NCBI GenBank assembly: GCA_021825465.1
Contig: JAKAGX010000002.1
Location: 1-36,638, forward strand
Source: a bacterium
Lineage (GTDB): Bacteria; Patescibacteriota; Minisyncoccia; UBA6257; GWB1-50-10
Direction: 5' to 3'
Length of the DNA stretch: 36,638 nt
Shown here: in pieces, positions 7,118 through 15,281 of the stretch
Numbering within the stretch: position 1 is the stretch's first letter
Layout: every line of letters starts with the position of its first letter
Program-made: the position numbers and the translations under genes
Notes under the pieces: model-generated
Databases searched by the model: none
The model's input: the letters and a program-made list of their open reading frames with translations, nothing else
What the model was told of the DNA's origin: nothing

Positions 7118-8110
7118 ATGCCAAAACCGGTGCTTGTGTCGGGCATCCAGCCGACGGGAAAACTGCATATCGGGAATTACTTGGGATCACTGAAGAATTT
7201 CGTCGCGCTTCAAGACCTCGACGAATATCAATGCTTCTTTTTCATCGCCGACCTCCATTCCCTGACCGAGGATTTCGACCCGAAAGAAAAGGCAAGTCAA
7301 ATACGGAACGTGGTCGCCGACTATCTCGCTGCGGGTCTCAATCCGAAGCAATCGGTCATTTTCCAGCAATCGGAGATTCCGGCACACGCGGAACTCGCCG
7401 TCATTTTGAACAACTTCGCCCCGATCGGAGAAATGGAACGAATGACGCAATTCAAGGACAAGTCCAAAAACCAGGCCGGCAACATCAATATGGGCCTCTT
7501 CGACTATCCCGTCCTCATGGCGGCCGATATCCTTCTCTACGGCGCATCCGTCGTCCCCGTCGGCGAGGATCAAGTACAGCACCTCGAGCTTGCCCGGACG
7601 CTCGCCCGAAGATTCAATGCAAAATTCGGCAAAACATTCGTCGAACCGAAGCCGATCCTCACGGAAGCGAAACGCATCATGAGCCTGGACGATCCGACGA
7701 AAAAAATGTCCAAGTCGCGGCCCCAAGGATGCCTCTTCCTCGACGACGAGCCGGACGTGATCCGCAAAAAGGTCCAGCGCGCAGTGACCGATTCCGGCAG
7801 CGAAATTAAATATGATCCGGAGCGGAAGCCTGCACTCTCGAATCTCATGAGCGTGTATGCGAACATGGCGGACGTCCGCATGGATCAAATCGAATCCGCG
7901 TTCAAAGGGAAGGGCTACGGCGACTTCAAAAAAGGCCTCGCCGAAGTCATCATACAAGCGCTCGCGCCGTTCCAAGAAAAGAAGCGGAAACTCCTTGCAA
8001 GCCCGGGCATCATCAAAAAAGCGCTCGCCGCCGGGAACAAAAAAGCGAGTTCGGTTGCCGATAAAAAAATCGAGGAAATAAAAGAGAAAATAGGCATATC
8101 ACTTGACTAG
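7118..8110 (+). CDS. trpS: tryptophan--tRNA ligase
   Basis: 330 aa. The HIGH-type motif is KLHIGNYLG and the KMSKS motif is present. Size is that of class Ic TrpRS. Confidence 0.93.
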   Translation: MPKPVLVSGIQPTGKLHIGNYLGSLKNFVALQDLDEYQCFFFIADLHSLTEDFDPKEKASQIRNVVADYLAAGLNPKQSVIFQQSEIPAHAELAVILNNFAPIGEMERMTQFKDKSKNQAGNINMGLFDYPVLMAADILLYGASVVPVGEDQVQHLELARTLARRFNAKFGKTFVEPKPILTEAKRIMSLDDPTKKMSKSRPQGCLFLDDEPDVIRKKVQRAVTDSGSEIKYDPERKPALSNLMSVYANMADVRMDQIESAFKGKGYGDFKKGLAEVIIQALAPFQEKKRKLLASPGIIKKALAAGNKKASSVADKKIEEIKEKIGISLD

Positions 8111-8790: not shown

Positions 8791-8828
8791 GGAGCGGTTT
8801 CACCAAAAGAGCCGCTCCTATTTTTTTA
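8791..8828 (+). terminator. rho-independent terminator (potentially bidirectional; overlaps the ileS stop)
   Basis: GGAGCGG at 8791-8797 pairs with CCGCTCC at 8812-8818, followed by a T run. An A run precedes it, so it could also terminate the convergent ileS. Confidence 0.6.
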
Positions 8829-11800
8829 TCCCGATCCAGATCGGATCGCCGTCGAACTTCGTCTCGATCTCAGCGTCGAACTTGTCGGAACGCTTGAGGA
8901 AAATTTCCGAAGCGTTTATTTCTTTCATCAGGAGTTTTTCATTGCGCCCCACAATATTTTTAACCTCGGGTTGGGCTTCAATGAGAAGCGTTATCTTGTC
9001 TTTGGGAACAAACCCGCCGTCTTGGCGAAGATCTTGGATCATGCGCACGAGCTCGCGAACCGTTCCCTCCTCTTTAAGCTTCGGCGTGATCACCGTGTCG
9101 AGGACGAAATCCTCTTTTAACTTGGAGTCGAAGGTCACTTCTTTTACATTGATTTCATCCTTTAAAATTTCGAGAAGAGCCGCATCCATCTTCGATCTCG
9201 AATCCTTAACCGCGAGCGACGCGAGGGGCTGGCGTACTTTGATCCCCAATTCCGCACGCTTCGCGAGGGCAGCACTCGCGAGATCGCGCACCGTCTTCAT
9301 GCCGTGTAACAATTTCGAGTTCCGAGTTTCGAGTTTCGGGCTGGTCTTAGGCCATTCCTCCAGGTGGACCGAGAGCTCACCCTTCAAAGAGACGGACCGA
9401 TAGAGCGCATCGGCGAAGAACGGCATAAAAGGAGCAAGGAGCTTGGTAAGTTCGGTAAGACAATACCGGAGCGTCGCCGACGCCGCGGCATAATCCTTCT
9501 TGTTGTCCGGCTTTTGGAGCCGCCTCCGCGAACGGCGGATATACCACCGCGAAAGGTCGTTCACGAACTCTTCAATCGACTTGCCGGCGCCGCCGATATC
9601 ATACGCATCAAGGGCTTTGGTCGAAACAGCGATGGCTTCGTCGAGGCGCGCGATGATCCACCGATCGAGAACGTTCGATTTCGCGGTCGGCGCTTTATAT
9701 TTGGCGCTTTTATCGGCGTACGTCCGGTAGAAAACGTACGAGTTGTACATCATGAGGATGAACTGACGGAGCACTTTCCCGAGGTCTGCTTCGTCGAAGC
9801 GCTTCGGTTCGCCCGGCGCATTCACGGTATAAAAATACCACCGGACGGTATCGGCGCCGTATTTTTGGATCATGTCCCACGGGCTCACGGTATTTCCCTT
9901 TGACTTCGACATCTTTTGGGCGTTCTTATCGAGCAGGAGGCCCAAGGAGATCACGTTCCGGTACGGTGCTTTTTTCTTCAAGAGCGTTGCGACGGCAAGG
10001 AGCGTATAGAACCAGCCGCGCGTTTGATCGATCCCTTCAACGATGTAATCGGCGGGATACAGAAGCTTTGTCTTGTTCTCGAAAGGATAGTGGTCTTCGG
10101 CGAAGGGCATCGATCCGGAATCGAACCAAACGTCCGCGACCTCGGGAATCCGCTTCATCGTCCCGCCGCATGTGCATTGAAAAACGGCTTCGTCGACGTA
10201 CGGTTTATGGAGATCGATCTCGCCGGTATCGTTCCGGGGGATTATTTTGAGGCCGAGCTTCCGGATTTCGGCGAACGTTATAAAATCATCGCCCCGCTTT
10301 TCTTTTTCAGCGATCGCCTCGCGCTCCGTCCACCCTTCGGCAACCTGGAAAAGCATCCAAATCGGGTACTCGTGCGTCACGAGAAGGATGTTCTTTCCCT
10401 CATACTTCGACTCGCATTCCTTGAGGAAATTCCACAAGCGCGTCCGAAGATCGCGGACCGACTCCCCTCCTTCGGGCCGCCGCTCGAATTTCGACTGAAA
10501 GGTCGGGAAAAGCACGTGGTATTTCTCATCGTGGCAGCCCATGAGGTCCGCCCCCAATTGGATCTCTTCAAGACGCTTGTCCACCTTCGCATCCGCCGTG
10601 CCCAGTATCCCAAGATCAATCTCATCGGTTTCCTTCGTCCGCAAAATATCGGACGTGATGACGACGTCGATCTTCTTCCCCTTCCGGGCAAGCTCGTGCT
10701 TGAACTTTTTGATCGACAATTCGACTTGCCGCTTGCCGCGGGCGGTCAGGTGGAATTTCGTTTTTGTCGCATCGATGATATCAAGGACGTTGTTTTCCGC
10801 TTCGCCGTGGCGCATGACCCAATAGCTGTTCTTCGGGCGGCCGAGTTTTTTTGCGAGCTCGCCGACGCCCCCTAAGACTTCGGTCCTGCCGCATTTTTTG
10901 CAGACCCAAACCGGAAGCGGCGTTCCCCAATACCGTTCGCGCGAGATCGCCCAATCCTTGACATCCTTCAGCCATTCGCCGAATCTTCCGTTTTTAATGG
11001 TCGCAGGGACCCAGTTCACCGTCTTATTCGAAGCCAAAAGCTCGCGCTTCAATTTGGACATGCCGATGAACCACGAATCGCGCGCGTAGTAAAGGATCGG
11101 CGTGCCGCATCGCCAGCAAAACGGGTATTCGTGCTCATACTTTTCGGTCTTTAAAAGGAAATTCCGCTCCTTGAGAAGTTCGAATATCTTTTCTTCGGTT
11201 TCTTTCGCCTTCACGTACATCCCCGCAAGCTCCGGGACATCGGCGGTGAATTTCCCCGACGTATCGACGGTATGATGTTTCGGCAAGCCGACCTTCGTTC
11301 CCAATTGGTAATCGTCCTCGCCGTACATGACGGCCGTATGAACGACGCCGGTCCCGTCTTCAGTCGTCACGAAATCGGCCGGATATACCCGATACGAGCT
11401 CTCTGTTTTCAATTTTTTGACGTCGAAGAGCGGTTCATACCGCAAGCCGACGAGATCCTTGCCACTGAAAGTATTGAGTATCTGGTATTTAGTATTGAGT
11501 ACTTTATCTGCCAAAAGAGAAGCGATAATGTATTTTTCATCGCTCCCTTCAATACTGACTACTGTATACTTGATACTCTCGCCAACTGCGAGGGCGACAT
11601 TTCCGGGGAGCGTCCACGGCGTCGTCGTCCATGAAAGGACGTAGGTATTGCCATCGGTCGTAAAGCTTCTGCCGATCGTCTGGTTCGGCAAAAGCCTGAA
11701 CTTCATGTACACCGACATATCCTCGGTCGTCTTGTACCCTTGGGCGAGCTCGTGCGACGACAAGGCCGTCCCGCACCGCGTGCACCACGAAATCACCTTA

Positions 11801-12492
11801 TGCCCCTGGTAGAGGAGTTTTTTCTTGTGGACCTCGGAGAAGATCCACCACAAGGTCTCCATGTAATTCTTGTCGTACGTGATGTACGGATGATCCATGT
11901 CGAGCCAAAAGCCGATGCGCTCGGTGATCCGCTCCCACTCGTCCTTGTATTCCCATACCGACTCGCGGCATTTTTTATTGAACGCCGCAATGCCGTATTC
12001 TTCGATCTCTTTCTTCGATCTCAACCCGAGCTTTTTTTCAACCTCGATCTCAACCGGCAGACCGTGCGTATCCCATCCGGCCCGGCGCGGAACGGAAAAT
12101 CCGGCCATTGTCCTGTACCGGAGGACGATGTCCTTGAACGAGCGCGAGAGCACATGGTGGATGCCCGGACGGCCGTTCGCCGTGGGAGGGCCTTCGTAAA
12201 AAACGAACTTCTTTTTAGCTTTGTTCTTTTTGAGCGACTTCTCAAAAATGCCGTTTTCTTTCCAGAACTTCAACACCTTCTCTTCGACCTCCGGCAGGGA
12301 GAATGCGGAACCCGCCTCAAAAATATCCTTTCTGCTCCGATCCCCCCGGTTCGGCTGCGGCTTCTTCACTCCTCCTCGCTGGATTTGCTTTGCCAATACA
12401 GCATCGTCGTCGTTCTTTGCCTCGCTCGAACCGGAGTGGACGTCGCGACGAAAAACATCTTTGGGGCGGGTTCTGTCCGAATCATCAAGCAT
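8818..12492 (-). CDS. ileS: isoleucine--tRNA ligase (type 2-like) carrying an internal histidine-phosphatase-like insertion; 5' boundary uncertain
   Basis: 1224-aa ORF. Motifs present: PPTANGRPGIHH (HIGH region), the editing domain WTTTPWTLPGN, KMSKS, and zinc motifs CWRCG, CKKCG and CTCGG. Residues ~555-755 are not IleRS-like (see findings). The first ~62 codons coincide with a repeated RNA-like element. Confidence 0.93.
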   Translation of the reverse strand: MLDDSDRTRPKDVFRRDVHSGSSEAKNDDDAVLAKQIQRGGVKKPQPNRGDRSRKDIFEAGSAFSLPEVEEKVLKFWKENGIFEKSLKKNKAKKKFVFYEGPPTANGRPGIHHVLSRSFKDIVLRYRTMAGFSVPRRAGWDTHGLPVEIEVEKKLGLRSKKEIEEYGIAAFNKKCRESVWEYKDEWERITERIGFWLDMDHPYITYDKNYMETLWWIFSEVHKKKLLYQGHKVISWCTRCGTALSSHELAQGYKTTEDMSVYMKFRLLPNQTIGRSFTTDGNTYVLSWTTTPWTLPGNVALAVGESIKYTVVSIEGSDEKYIIASLLADKVLNTKYQILNTFSGKDLVGLRYEPLFDVKKLKTESSYRVYPADFVTTEDGTGVVHTAVMYGEDDYQLGTKVGLPKHHTVDTSGKFTADVPELAGMYVKAKETEEKIFELLKERNFLLKTEKYEHEYPFCWRCGTPILYYARDSWFIGMSKLKRELLASNKTVNWVPATIKNGRFGEWLKDVKDWAISRERYWGTPLPVWVCKKCGRTEVLGGVGELAKKLGRPKNSYWVMRHGEAENNVLDIIDATKTKFHLTARGKRQVELSIKKFKHELARKGKKIDVVITSDILRTKETDEIDLGILGTADAKVDKRLEEIQLGADLMGCHDEKYHVLFPTFQSKFERRPEGGESVRDLRTRLWNFLKECESKYEGKNILLVTHEYPIWMLFQVAEGWTEREAIAEKEKRGDDFITFAEIRKLGLKIIPRNDTGEIDLHKPYVDEAVFQCTCGGTMKRIPEVADVWFDSGSMPFAEDHYPFENKTKLLYPADYIVEGIDQTRGWFYTLLAVATLLKKKAPYRNVISLGLLLDKNAQKMSKSKGNTVSPWDMIQKYGADTVRWYFYTVNAPGEPKRFDEADLGKVLRQFILMMYNSYVFYRTYADKSAKYKAPTAKSNVLDRWIIARLDEAIAVSTKALDAYDIGGAGKSIEEFVNDLSRWYIRRSRRRLQKPDNKKDYAAASATLRYCLTELTKLLAPFMPFFADALYRSVSLKGELSVHLEEWPKTSPKLETRNSKLLHGMKTVRDLASAALAKRAELGIKVRQPLASLAVKDSRSKMDAALLEILKDEINVKEVTFDSKLKEDFVLDTVITPKLKEEGTVRELVRMIQDLRQDGGFVPKDKITLLIEAQPEVKNIVGRNEKLLMKEINASEIFLKRSDKFDAEIETKFDGDPIWIGIKK
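12308..12473 (-). ncRNA. structured repeat element, copy 2 (homolog of 14766-14930), inside the annotated 5' end of ileS
   Basis: The closing helix pairs GAACCCGCCCCAAAGATGTTTTTC with GAAAGGATATTTTTGAGGCGGGTTC. A 77-nt ungapped core differs at 8 positions from the copy upstream of ssrA. Substitutions in the helices are compensatory. Confidence 0.55.
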
Positions 12493-12697: not shown

Positions 12698-14284
12698 CTA
12701 CATCTCTTCCGGCGGCACAATACCCAAAAGGCGAAAGGTGTTCTCAAAAACGATGGCGGATGCGGTAACCAAGGCGAGCTTCGGCCGTTCACGCTCGCTG
12801 CCGATCACCTTTTCTTCTTCATAAAAATTGTGGAACGATTTGACGGCCCCCATGAGATACCGGGTAAGCCGATGGACTTCGTAATCCCGCGCCGACTCGG
12901 CAACAACATCGGGAAAAGAGGCAAGGCGGACCATCAGTTCGCGCTCGGCAACCGAACCCAAAGCACTGAGGTCTTGCGTCTTTGCTTTCACCGGAACGCC
13001 GGCCTTCGCGAGGATCTTTTTTGCGCGTACGAGGGCATACTCGGCATAAAACACGGGATTTTTCGACGAACGCTCCTTCGCTAAATCCAAATCGAAATCG
13101 ATGTGAGAATTCGCGCCGACCGCAAGGAAGAAAAACTTCGCGACATCAACACCGACCTCATCCACGAGATCCTCGAACGTGACGAACGTCCCTTTACGCT
13201 TCGACATTTTGACAAACTCTTCCCCTTTCTTGATGAGAATGGCCTGCGTTATCACAACGTCCGATCTTTTGAATTTCAAGATGTCCGCGACCGCCTGGAT
13301 CCGCCGCACATAGCCGTAATGGTCGGGGCCCAAAACATTGATCTTCCAGTCAAACCCCCGTTTTTTGGTCTCGAGATAGTGGCCGGCGTCGACCAAAAAA
13401 TATGTCGGGAGGTTATCTTTCGTAAGAAGCACCCGGTCCTTGTCGTCGCTAAAATCGGTCGTTTTGAGCCACACGGCGCCGTCGCGTTCATATACCTTTC
13501 CCGACTTCCGAAGGAGCCGCAACGCCTTTTCGGGAAGTTTTTTCTTCCGAACGCTCCGCTCCGATGTATACCGATCGAAATGTATGCCGGATTTTTTTTC
13601 GATGACGTGCTTGATGCCCTCCAAAAAATCATCCGCCGCCCGCTCGCCGACGGCCTCCGGGTCTTCCCGATGCCGTTCCACGAACGCGCGGTTCCTGCCC
13701 GCCCATTCTTTGACGTATTCGCCTTGATAAAATTCTTCGGAGCTTTCGATGAATCCCAATGCGGCAAGGATCGATCTTCCGAGCGTTAAAACCTGATTGC
13801 CGCTGTCGTTCACGTAGTATTCGCGTTCGACGTCGGCACCGGCAAAAGCAAGGACATTCGAAAGCGCGGTTCCGTAAAAACCGCCGCGGCCGTTCGCAAG
13901 CGTCAGGGGTCCCGTGGGGTTTGCCGATATGAATTCGACTTGCACGCGCCCCTTGACCGACCGGGAAGAACCGTACTTCATGCCCGCTTTTATAATCTCG
14001 CCGATCTCCCTTTGAAGCGACTTCTTCGAGACCCAAAAATTAATGAAGCCGTTTTCCGAAACGCCGATCCGGTCCACCGCGTCGATCGGAGACCTCCGAA
14101 ACGAATCCGCGAACTCGTTTGCCGCTTCCCGCGGAGATCTTTTTTCGGACCTCGCAAGCGCAAATGCGATGTTTGTCGCATAGTCGGCATCGGTCGCCTT
14201 TTTATCCGGAACTTCGACCGAAAATCCGGTCTCAAGACCGGTCATCTCCTTCAGCTTTCTTTCTATTTCCTCTTTTATCGTCAT
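12698..14284 (-). CDS. argS: arginine--tRNA ligase
   Basis: The track ORF extends to 14518, but that part overlaps smpB antisense and is not ArgRS-like. The real N-terminus, MTIKEEIERKLKEMTG, starts at ATG 14284. Also present are the N-terminal Arg_tRNA_synt_N-like domain, SANPTGPLTLANGRG (HIGH-equivalent) and a C-terminal DALR-type domain. Confidence 0.9.
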   Translation of the reverse strand: MTIKEEIERKLKEMTGLETGFSVEVPDKKATDADYATNIAFALARSEKRSPREAANEFADSFRRSPIDAVDRIGVSENGFINFWVSKKSLQREIGEIIKAGMKYGSSRSVKGRVQVEFISANPTGPLTLANGRGGFYGTALSNVLAFAGADVEREYYVNDSGNQVLTLGRSILAALGFIESSEEFYQGEYVKEWAGRNRAFVERHREDPEAVGERAADDFLEGIKHVIEKKSGIHFDRYTSERSVRKKKLPEKALRLLRKSGKVYERDGAVWLKTTDFSDDKDRVLLTKDNLPTYFLVDAGHYLETKKRGFDWKINVLGPDHYGYVRRIQAVADILKFKRSDVVITQAILIKKGEEFVKMSKRKGTFVTFEDLVDEVGVDVAKFFFLAVGANSHIDFDLDLAKERSSKNPVFYAEYALVRAKKILAKAGVPVKAKTQDLSALGSVAERELMVRLASFPDVVAESARDYEVHRLTRYLMGAVKSFHNFYEEEKVIGSERERPKLALVTASAIVFENTFRLLGIVPPEEM

Positions 14285-14310
14285 AAATCTTATTTTTAGT
14301 ATATACCAAG

Positions 14311-14766
14311 ATGAGGTACTATGAATACCATACAATGGCCATATTTGCGGAAAACAAAAGAGCTCTCTTCGACTACGAGATCCTCGGGGCATTCGAGGCC
14401 GGCATTGTGCTGAAAGGCTACGAAGCAAAGGCCGTAACGAGCGGCCGCGTGAACCTTTCGGGATCCTACGCTTCCCTCGTGCGGGGCGAGCTTTGGATCG
14501 TGAATCTCGACATCCCACCCTATCAGCCGAAGAATATCCCCGGCCTATACGATCCCAAGCGGTCGAGAAAACTCCTCGTTACCAAAAGCGAACTCGATGA
14601 ACTTATCGGAAAGACGAAGGGGTTGACACTTATTCCGATGAAGATGTATAGTAAGCGCGGCAAAATAAAGCTCGAGATCGGACTCGCAAAATCGAGGAAG
14701 AAGAAAGACAAGCGCGAGGTCATCAAGCAACGCGAAACTCAGAAAGAAATCAAGCGCTTTATCTAG
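14311..14766 (+). CDS. smpB: SsrA-binding protein SmpB
   Basis: Motifs NKRALFDYEILGAFEAGIVLKGYEAKAV and KLLVTKSELDEL, with a basic C-terminal tail. The alternative start ATG 14335 (MAIFAENKRA...) matches the usual SmpB N-terminus better. Confidence 0.9.
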   Translation: MRYYEYHTMAIFAENKRALFDYEILGAFEAGIVLKGYEAKAVTSGRVNLSGSYASLVRGELWIVNLDIPPYQPKNIPGLYDPKRSRKLLVTKSELDELIGKTKGLTLIPMKMYSKRGKIKLEIGLAKSRKKKDKREVIKQRETQKEIKRFI

Positions 14767-14934: not shown

Positions 14935-15271
14935 GGGGGCGCACGCTTCGACAGGAAAGCTCTTTGAAAGTAGCAAGCCGAGGGGCGGTAAACTCGTAAA
15001 ACTGCCGCACAAAAGAACTGACAACAATAAAGTTGCAGCCCCGGCATTGGCGTTCGCTTAATGCCGGCCCCGGTTCCACGAGAATCGGGCATCGGTCCTC
15101 TCTTCCCGCAGGAGGATAACCGGTGTCATATCGCGGGATCGCTCGCCCCAAGGGGTTCCCCATACCGGCGAGTTAAACCATCGGGAACGATTTTGCTCTC
15201 TTTTCGAGAACTAAGCTTGTAGAATACTCTCAAATAATTTCTTGGACGAGGGTCCAATCCCTCCGCCTCCA
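14935..15271 (+). ncRNA. ssrA: tmRNA (transfer-messenger RNA)
   Basis: The 5' end is GGGGGCGCACGCTTCGACAGG. The 3' end is GGACGAGGGTCCAATCCCTC-CGCCTCC-A. The acceptor helix GGGGGCG/CGCCTCC contains the G3-U70 alanine identity pair. The tag reading frame ends ...GAC AAC AAT AAA GTT GCA GCC CCG GCA TTG GCG TTC GCT TAA (DNNKVAAPALAFA*), with the stop codon inside a hairpin. It lies next to smpB. CCA is not encoded. Confidence 0.9.
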
Positions 15272-15281
15272 CAATCAAAAA

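Follow-up and report, generated by a model that had tools for sequence, protein, structure and literature searches.

A histidine phosphatase domain inside the CP3 zinc knuckle of isoleucyl-tRNA synthetase in Paceibacteria/Parcubacteria, and its free-standing counterpart upstream of ileS

The isoleucyl-tRNA synthetase (IleRS) encoded in a stretch of 36,638 nucleotides (nt) of a Patescibacteriota genome (GenBank assembly GCA_021825465.1, contig JAKAGX010000002.1, positions 1 to 36,638; henceforth called the window) carries a histidine phosphatase (HP) domain of about 195 amino acids (aa) between the two Cys pairs of the zinc knuckle in its connective peptide 3 (CP3). The domain is conserved together with its position, is distributed across Paceibacteria/Parcubacteria, and alternates with a neighbouring free-standing gene located directly upstream of ileS. 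Based on sequence comparison, we consider it probable that the protein is a genuine bifunctional IleRS/phosphatase, the insertion being the fused form of a conserved Paceibacteria/Parcubacteria gene pair. An older argS-HP-ileS arrangement would have become covalent by placement of the HP inside a working type-2 IleRS, where it would supply a phosphomonoesterase activity needed by the cell; a conserved, apparently active phosphatase would thereby reside in CP3 of an essential synthetase across a large radiation of ultra-small bacteria. Coordinates refer to the window and its minus strand unless otherwise stated.

The IleRS gene and the position of the insert

The ileS gene (8818..12492) is an unbroken open reading frame (ORF) of 1224 aa, whose product is, by its family matches and motifs, a class Ia isoleucyl-tRNA synthetase of type 2 with predicted aminoacylation activity. 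The NCBIfam equivalog TIGR00392 (ileS) was matched over its full length (915.8 bits vs a cutoff of 621.4), and Pfam returned tRNA-synt_1 in two parts, with His_Phos_1 between the halves, as well as Anticodon_1 and DUF5915. The latter two form a C-terminus without the zinc-binding C-terminal domain of IleRS1, which is shared with the type-2 bacterial IleRS (eukaryote-like, mupirocin-resistant; 8c8u/8c8v/8c8w, 1ile); the whole IleRS body of the window protein aligned to these enzymes (phmmer E ~1e-245), and the best structural matches were IleRS2 and Thermus thermophilus IleRS. A full-length AF2 model, calculated from an alignment of 118 insert-bearing IleRS homologues (alignment A3), had a mean predicted local distance difference test (pLDDT) score of 91 and a predicted TM-score (pTM) of 0.83, and superposed in Foldseek on IleRS2 8c8v (TMt 0.81) and T. 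thermophilus 1ile (TMt 0.92).

The functional motifs of the synthetase are intact, as an earlier note on this DNA, made from the letters alone, had held when describing an in-frame insertion into an otherwise complete enzyme. The class I signatures are GIHH (aa 110-113, 12154..12165), a non-canonical G-x-H-H form of HIGH, and the KMSKS loop (aa 860-864, 9901..9915; K800, M801, and K803 in A3 numbering are invariant); the CP1 editing domain is represented by WTTTPWT (aa 288-294) and GTGVVH (aa 380-385) in a region aligning to structures 1wk8 and 1ue0; and the three Cys-pair zinc motifs are present. GIHH aligned to GVHH of the 8c8w mutant vs HVGH of the wild-type 8c8u, was the consensus at the HIGH site of the 118 relatives, and corresponds to GVHH in the insert-less IleRS encoded 3' of free-standing HP genes. 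The G-x-H-H signature is common to the window enzyme and part of the IleRS2 group, in which this variant is functional and confers mupirocin hyper-resistance (PMC10485003).

The inserted module including its linkers comprises aa 549-757 (10222..10848), with limits taken from the alignment to insert-less IleRS. Residues 548 and 758 of the window protein aligned to residues 476 and 485 of Priestia megaterium IleRS2 (8c8u/8c8w), i.e., about 209 residues stand in place of about 8, and none of the solved or discussed IleRS carries a domain in CP3. The insert is flanked by the two Cys pairs of the zinc knuckle, namely CKKC (aa 531-534, 10891..10902; 17 residues 5' of the insert) and CTC (aa 773-775; CTCGG at 10162..10176), both of which are invariant in the 118 homologues (C471/C474 and C713/C715 in A3). 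Window residue 552 aligned to residue 501 of Candida albicans IleRS (6ldk), whose CP3 spans residues 473-534 (PMC7191050), and the phosphatase is therefore nested inside the CP3 zinc knuckle. CP3 lies at the surface as a subdomain that connects CP2 with the latter half of the Rossmann fold, and its zinc motif is shared with T. thermophilus IleRS (PMC7191050).

Within the insert, the Pfam His_Phos_1 envelope (PF00300) covers aa 558-723 (10324-10821) and was matched far beyond chance (E = 2.4e-24, 86.5 bits vs a gathering score of 21.7). The way back to CP3 is provided by the C-terminal linker PRNDTG (10222..10239). Its residues P752, R753, and G757 show a conservation of at least 90% across insert-bearing IleRS; free-standing HP lack this motif and end in ...GELRKLN. 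The GC content of the insert (0.546) equals that of its flanks. The interval given in the earlier note for the domain, nt 10228-10830, corresponds exactly to aa 555-755, and all motifs quoted there (YWVMRHGEAENN, LTARGKRQ, ITSDILRTKET, LEEIQLGADLMG, ILLVTHEYPIWML, CKKCG...ELAKKLG, and DLHKPYVD...) were located where it had placed them.

Two observations on sequence variation of the enzyme were made in addition. In three loci (L015, L016, and L017), all four cysteines of the CP3 zinc knuckle are missing (CKKC replaced by SEDG, C-TC by KNGKK); the insert and its catalytic residues are nevertheless retained. Furthermore, the window IleRS has a 55-codon in-frame N-terminal extension (aa 5-60, 12313-12480; DSDRTRPKDVF...RKDIFEAGS), which is absent in locus L001 (insert region 99% identical), where IleRS begins with MLDNLDNSAFSLPEVEEK, and present in locus L002 (81% identical), and is therefore an indel polymorphism.

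Catalytic residues and fold of the phosphatase domain

The insert is, as judged from its profile match and catalytic residues, a complete branch-1 domain of the histidine phosphatase superfamily, in agreement with the earlier note. Its core residues R561/H562, R618, E643, and H707 were in register with both the Schizosaccharomyces pombe phosphoglycerate mutase (PGM) 1fzt and the phosphatase PhoE (1h2e). The RHG motif (R561, the nucleophile H562, and G563; 10804..10812) aligned to RHG of 1fzt, and R561 and H562 are invariant in the 118 IleRS homologues as well as in 23 free or inserted homologues (alignment A1). The second arginine of the phosphate pocket, R618, lies in SDILRT (10636..10653), where S614 is likewise invariant. 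The predicted proton donor E643 in RLEEI (10561..10575) aligned to the catalytic Glu region of PhoE (1h2e/1ebb, RLREIHLG), is at least 90% conserved in the 118 sequences, and is invariant in an alignment of 26 sequences (A4, there E95). The second catalytic histidine H707 is part of VTHEYPIW (10357..10380), which also contains the subfamily motif H-x-x-P-[IL]-W (SH-x-D-P-L-W in free-standing relatives); H707 is invariant and W712 at least 90% conserved. Like R561, H562, R618, and H707, the residue E677 of the GES motif is invariant in the 118 insert-bearing IleRS, and the same catalytic set is kept in the 17 GTDB loci described below. By this pattern, the catalytic residues are under purifying selection, and the domain is very probably catalytically active.

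According to the structure models, the domain apparently folds independently. The isolated domain was predicted by AF2 with a pLDDT of 92.4 and a pTM of 0.90, the insert and both linkers reached pLDDT values of 90-97 in the full-length model, and Foldseek assigned the superfamily fold with a probability of 1.00 (TM 0.69-0.77 to many solved members at 18-23% identity). The nearest solved folds were HFP 9mmh, PspA 4ij5, GpgP 4pz9, CobC 6e4b, PhoE 1h2e, TIGAR, and S. pombe PGM 1fzt. The insert thus has the fold, the length of about 200 aa, the Arg, His, Arg, Glu, His core, and a PhoE-like R-L-R-E-I-x-L-G acid region in common with the small branch-1 phosphatases PhoE/YhfR (1h2e, 1ebb), PspA, HFP of the riboflavin pathway, GpgP Rv2419c, and CobC; it differs from them by the subfamily motifs N-x-Y (preceding RHG) and H-x-x-P-[IL]-W (following the second His), by being encoded in or next to an aminoacyl-tRNA synthetase (aaRS) gene, and by a sequence identity of 18-23% only. 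A capless phosphatase of the SixA type (about 155 aa) was rejected as an identity, as TIGR00249 reached 23.6 bits vs a cutoff of 74.5 over the N-terminal 80 residues only, and the isolated HP model has a helical cap region at residues 107-122.

If active, the domain would follow the standard two-step mechanism of histidine phosphatases: H562 would attack a phosphomonoester held by R561, R618, and H707, E643 would protonate the leaving group, and the resulting phospho-histidine intermediate would then be hydrolysed. The predicted fold and cap resemble those of the small-molecule phosphatases PhoE, PspA, HFP, and GpgP, unlike those of the glycolytic cofactor-dependent phosphoglycerate mutase (dPGM).

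Distribution in Patescibacteria and the argS-HP-ileS gene order

The earlier note had presented the insertion as a singular oddity and had proposed a survey of IleRS from the candidate phyla radiation (CPR). Such a survey revealed the insert to be a common, clade-wide feature of Paceibacteria/Parcubacteria IleRS. A 261-aa query (insert plus flanks) was matched in full in 17 species representatives (one genome per GTDB species; 34-99% identity) from different studies, all of them Patescibacteria (Yonathbacteria, Minisyncoccia, Paceibacterota, and some labelled Saccharibacteria). PF00300 was found in each of the 120 best-scoring IleRS clusters (55-100% identity), and 25 metagenomic contigs carried an insert-bearing IleRS with the HP at the same site. 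When 1.84 billion representatives clustered at 50% identity were searched exhaustively, 285 relatives of the insert were obtained at E <= 1e-10, and among the 150 best of these, 94 were IleRS or IleRS fragments, all from the Paceibacteria/Parcubacteria group. Four close relatives (P0001-P0004) are short fragments running out of frame on contigs of 13-160 kb, which look like frameshifted gene calls of error-prone assemblies instead of true split genes.

Few enzymes have been studied as intensively as the aminoacyl-tRNA synthetases. Added domains are known from other synthetases as well, and usually mean editing, tRNA binding, signalling, or resistance. In the open-access literature, no report was found of an HP placed within the catalytic core of a synthetase or encoded as its operon partner; the earlier note, too, had been aware of no described aaRS with this domain. 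The widespread and conserved insert of Patescibacteria IleRS apparently is undescribed; neither a phosphatase nor CPR is mentioned in two IleRS-wide evolutionary studies (PMC10485003; bioRxiv 10.64898/2026.02.03.703510). The reservation made in the note, i.e., that the insertion might be a common and already annotated feature, applies in so far as it is common and databases already list the Pfam matches in precomputed form; it does not extend to product names, which ignore the domain (NCBI often names insert-bearing proteins only “class I tRNA ligase family protein”). A curated precedent for an IleRS with an extra enzymatic domain is NF040702 (“ileS_w_GNAT”), which carries a GNAT domain and not an HP, and which the window IleRS matched with 348 bits vs a cutoff of 1999 and in its IleRS part only.

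Free-standing relatives of the insert are about 190 aa long, share 33-40% identity with it, and have the motifs N-x-Y-[FW]-x-[LM]-RHG, SD..RT.[QE]T, RLR[DE]I, GE[ST], and KNIL[IL]V[ST]H..P[LI]W[LM]L in common with it. The order argS-HP-ileS was observed at all three loci inspected (P0154 from a Staskawiczbacteria metagenome-assembled genome, P0190, and P0170; L022-L024), and the IleRS encoded 3' of the free HP is insert-less; it aligned to aa 63-549 and 762-1224 of the window protein, the two blocks being separated by about 13 residues. In the window lineage, no HP gene is present between argS (12698..14518; Arg_tRNA_synt_N, tRNA-synt_1d, and DALR_1 in Pfam), which lies directly upstream of ileS, and ileS itself; the HP sits inside IleRS.

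This alternation was followed in metagenomes using six free-standing HP sequences (alignment A2) as query, which returned 70 loci. A free HP with ileS immediately downstream was present at 34 of these and an HP inside IleRS, at the same site, at 25, with argS located upstream in most of these 59 loci, as in the window. At three loci, the contig ended after a small selfish gene (L036 and L053) or other ORFs (L033) located 3' of the free HP, at one the free HP itself lay at the contig end, and the remaining seven were weak matches (28-34% identity) to distant homologues in other contexts. Hence, ileS was found immediately 3' of the free HP in 34/34 informative free-HP loci. The distance from the HP stop to the ileS start ranged from -7 to +24 nt at the 31 of these 34 loci where both gene ends could be placed, which implies co-transcription and probably coupled translation. 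In Paceibacteria, the HP subfamily is thus almost always encoded just before or inside ileS. The free-standing HP family as a whole comprises at least 1257 clusters at E <= 1e-10, with names such as “PhoE,” “histidine phosphatase family protein,” and “putative phosphoglycerate mutase.” At the two loci with selfish genes, the usual place of ileS directly 3' of the free HP is taken by a ribbon-helix-helix/RelE-like toxin-antitoxin pair (L036, ~2393-2872) and by a GIY-YIG nuclease-like ORF (L053, ~755-1057), respectively, after which the contigs end.

Additional fusions of the HP were found. One IleRS has two tandem HP domains in CP3 (P0176), and another of 1419 aa (P0239; L102 1932-6191) combines an HP in CP3 with a further copy located between its catalytic and its anticodon-binding domain. 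Outside of IleRS, the HP is joined to the C-terminus of ArgRS (P0180; L101 6001-8070), with recO directly following the fusion gene and no ileS at the locus, and to a TsaC-like Sua5/YciO/YrdC protein (P0210; L100 977-2140).

A neighbour-joining (NJ) tree of the HP domains was star-like and unresolved, and gives no number of insertion events; “free” members within its IleRS clades are mostly contig-truncated IleRS fragments (e.g., P0145, which clusters at 90% with a 723-aa IleRS fragment). When the HP columns were left out, an NJ tree of IleRS, calculated without support values, showed insert-bearing and free-type enzymes interleaved, which hints at more than one transition between the two forms or at exchange of ileS.

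Explanations for the insert and neighbouring genes

Within the proposal of a bifunctional IleRS/phosphatase, two possibilities were considered for the relation between the two activities. The HP activity may have a functional connection to IleRS or to the chemistry of adenylate formation, to which we give a little less than even weight; it would then clear a phosphorylated nucleotide, a pyrophosphate-type product, or an inhibitor at the synthetic site, or act on the tRNA end. Alternatively, and with slightly better than even prospects, it may be an unrelated housekeeping phosphatase that merely shares the expression of IleRS. In favour of cooperation, sequence comparisons point to the same internal site with conserved linkers across deep divergence, a second independent site in IleRS, tight spacing to ileS at every informative locus, and covalent joining to two further enzymes that form adenylates. 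The occurrence of the HP either as an upstream gene or inside IleRS represents a natural experiment on the cooperation of the two activities.

The strongest competing explanation, to which we assign just under an even chance, is a housekeeping phosphatase fixed by chance, i.e., the transfer of an adjacent HP copy into a surface loop of IleRS that accommodates insertions, without any interplay with aminoacylation; the HP would persist there only as a tolerated domain whose own activity is required. Several observations favour it and at the same time weigh against a dedicated link between HP and IleRS. The wider gene order smpB/argS/HP/ileS/x/recO is conserved at the same loci although ArgRS, IleRS, and RecO are functionally unrelated; as this neighbourhood of unrelated genes is itself syntenic, adjacency says little about a functional link, and fusion with a neighbouring gene could be opportunistic. 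The HP is also fused to whichever neighbour is available, as in the ArgRS-HP protein, which can be simple read-through, and its locus L101, where no ileS is nearby, is a counter-example to strict dependence on IleRS. Distant homologues occur in other housekeeping operons (e.g., adk-HP-secY in L028), and the modelled fold resembles ordinary metabolic phosphatases. Two more observations weigh against the bifunctional proposal: the evolution of the HP is faster than that of the IleRS core (mean pairwise identity in the 118 sequences of 0.48 vs 0.62-0.71, with 0.46 for the C-terminal domain), and in one free homologue (P0194) the second catalytic His is replaced (SSEG vs SH-x-D/G), which could reflect degeneration of this copy or an error in sequencing. 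As a further point for fixation by chance, a CobC/PhoE-like HP is joined to a nucleic-acid enzyme without obvious shared pathway in the RNase H/acid phosphatase family (PRK07238, Rv2228c type), which we take to be an unrelated His_Phos fusion; the insert matched the phosphatase half of PRK07238 with E = 6.9e-15 at a score under the cutoff, and that fusion is terminal to RNase H, vs the internal insertion into an aaRS described here. Against fixation by chance, one CP3 site is kept in frame across IleRS lineages that are only about 40% identical in the insert, the PRNxTG linkers are conserved and rigidly modelled, IleRS has been entered independently at another site (P0239), the gap to ileS is tight, and the Sua5 fusion occurs in a different context; together, these features exceed the expectation from simple read-through into a neighbour. 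Even if the HP served housekeeping only, it would still be a clean case in which an essential enzyme has taken up a neighbouring gene as an internal domain.

At the other end, the HP may be a dedicated partner of IleRS, as a subunit if encoded upstream and as a domain if inserted, with its catalysis coupled to aminoacylation. We regard this as rather unlikely. Coupled roles could comprise the removal of a phosphorylated nucleotide or pyrophosphate-type product, or of a phosphate-bearing inhibitor mimicking the adenylate, at the synthetic site, or else the removal of a blocking phosphate from the acceptor end of tRNA-Ile. If true, a phosphatase activity relevant to charging would for the first time be known as an integral part of an aminoacyl-tRNA synthetase, and the covalent links to IleRS (at two sites), ArgRS, and Sua5/TsaC would reflect shared adenylate-forming chemistry.

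An improbable explanation is that the HP represents a missing glycolytic mutase, i.e., a divergent dPGM placed in or next to ileS for expression only. PGM was undetected in several Parcubacteria clades and is reported to be patchy in the group (Jaffe et al., PMC7304191). The best single sequence matches of the insert are to members of this family, namely the short archaeal dPGM NF038349 in NCBIfam and S. pombe PGM 1fzt in the PDB, and both “putative phosphoglycerate mutase” and K15634 occur among the database names. The scores, however, are far under the family cutoffs (NF038349, 62 bits vs 225; PRK01295, 35 vs 316; PRK03482, 40 vs 261), and the insert exceeded none of the NCBIfam equivalog cutoffs. 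Furthermore, the positions distinguishing mutases differ. The residues which we take to be mutase-specific in S. pombe PGM are Y of ERYYG, K of GLNK, RR of WRRS, and N of HGN; in the alignment to 1fzt, ERYYG corresponds to EIQLG, WRRS to FQSK, and HGN to HEY of the insert, and K of GLNK has no counterpart. The family consensus at these positions is REIxLG and SHEYP, the acid region EIQLG resembles EIHLG of PhoE, and the structural neighbours are mostly phosphatases at similar scores. As the mutase signature is absent and no equivalog cutoff is reached, the domain is best called a phosphatase and not a mutase. The wording “phosphoglycerate-mutase-like” in the earlier note is thus appropriate for the superfamily, to which dPGM also belongs, and not for dPGM itself. 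KEGG-style pipelines may nevertheless count the domain as “probable phosphoglycerate mutase” (K15634), which could distort metabolic reconstructions of CPR bacteria.

It is highly improbable that the insert is a catalytically irrelevant structural or tRNA-binding appendage, i.e., an exapted dead enzyme. Class I synthetases have often gained idiosyncratic CP insertions aiding tRNA binding, P0194 lacks the catalytic His, and in L015-L017, where the zinc ligands of CP3 are missing, the insert may assume a structural role; yet the complete catalytic set is invariant in the 118 insert-bearing IleRS and the 17 GTDB loci while nearby positions vary freely, which would not be expected of a dead domain. 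An assembly chimera or a pseudogene, conceivable for a window from a metagenome-type genome with some fragmented or frameshifted database relatives (P0001-P0004), can be dismissed, as the earlier note had supposed, since the ORF is continuous, the GC content of insert and flanks is equal, and both IleRS halves and the insert are conserved, and identical junctions recur in sequences that many different studies assembled independently, covering 17 GTDB species representatives, over 120 protein clusters, and 25 contigs from metagenomes.

In the vicinity of ileS, three class I synthetase genes are encoded within 7.5 kb, i.e., trpS (7118-8110, plus strand), ileS, and argS. The longest ORF of argS has a GTG start and an Arg/Ser/Pro-rich leader of about 80 aa before Arg_tRNA_synt_N, and the true start probably is further downstream. 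Just past argS, a tmRNA gene is located at 14935-15274 on the plus strand (Rfam RF00023, 118 bits), and smpB is present in the corresponding neighbourhood of L022 and L101.

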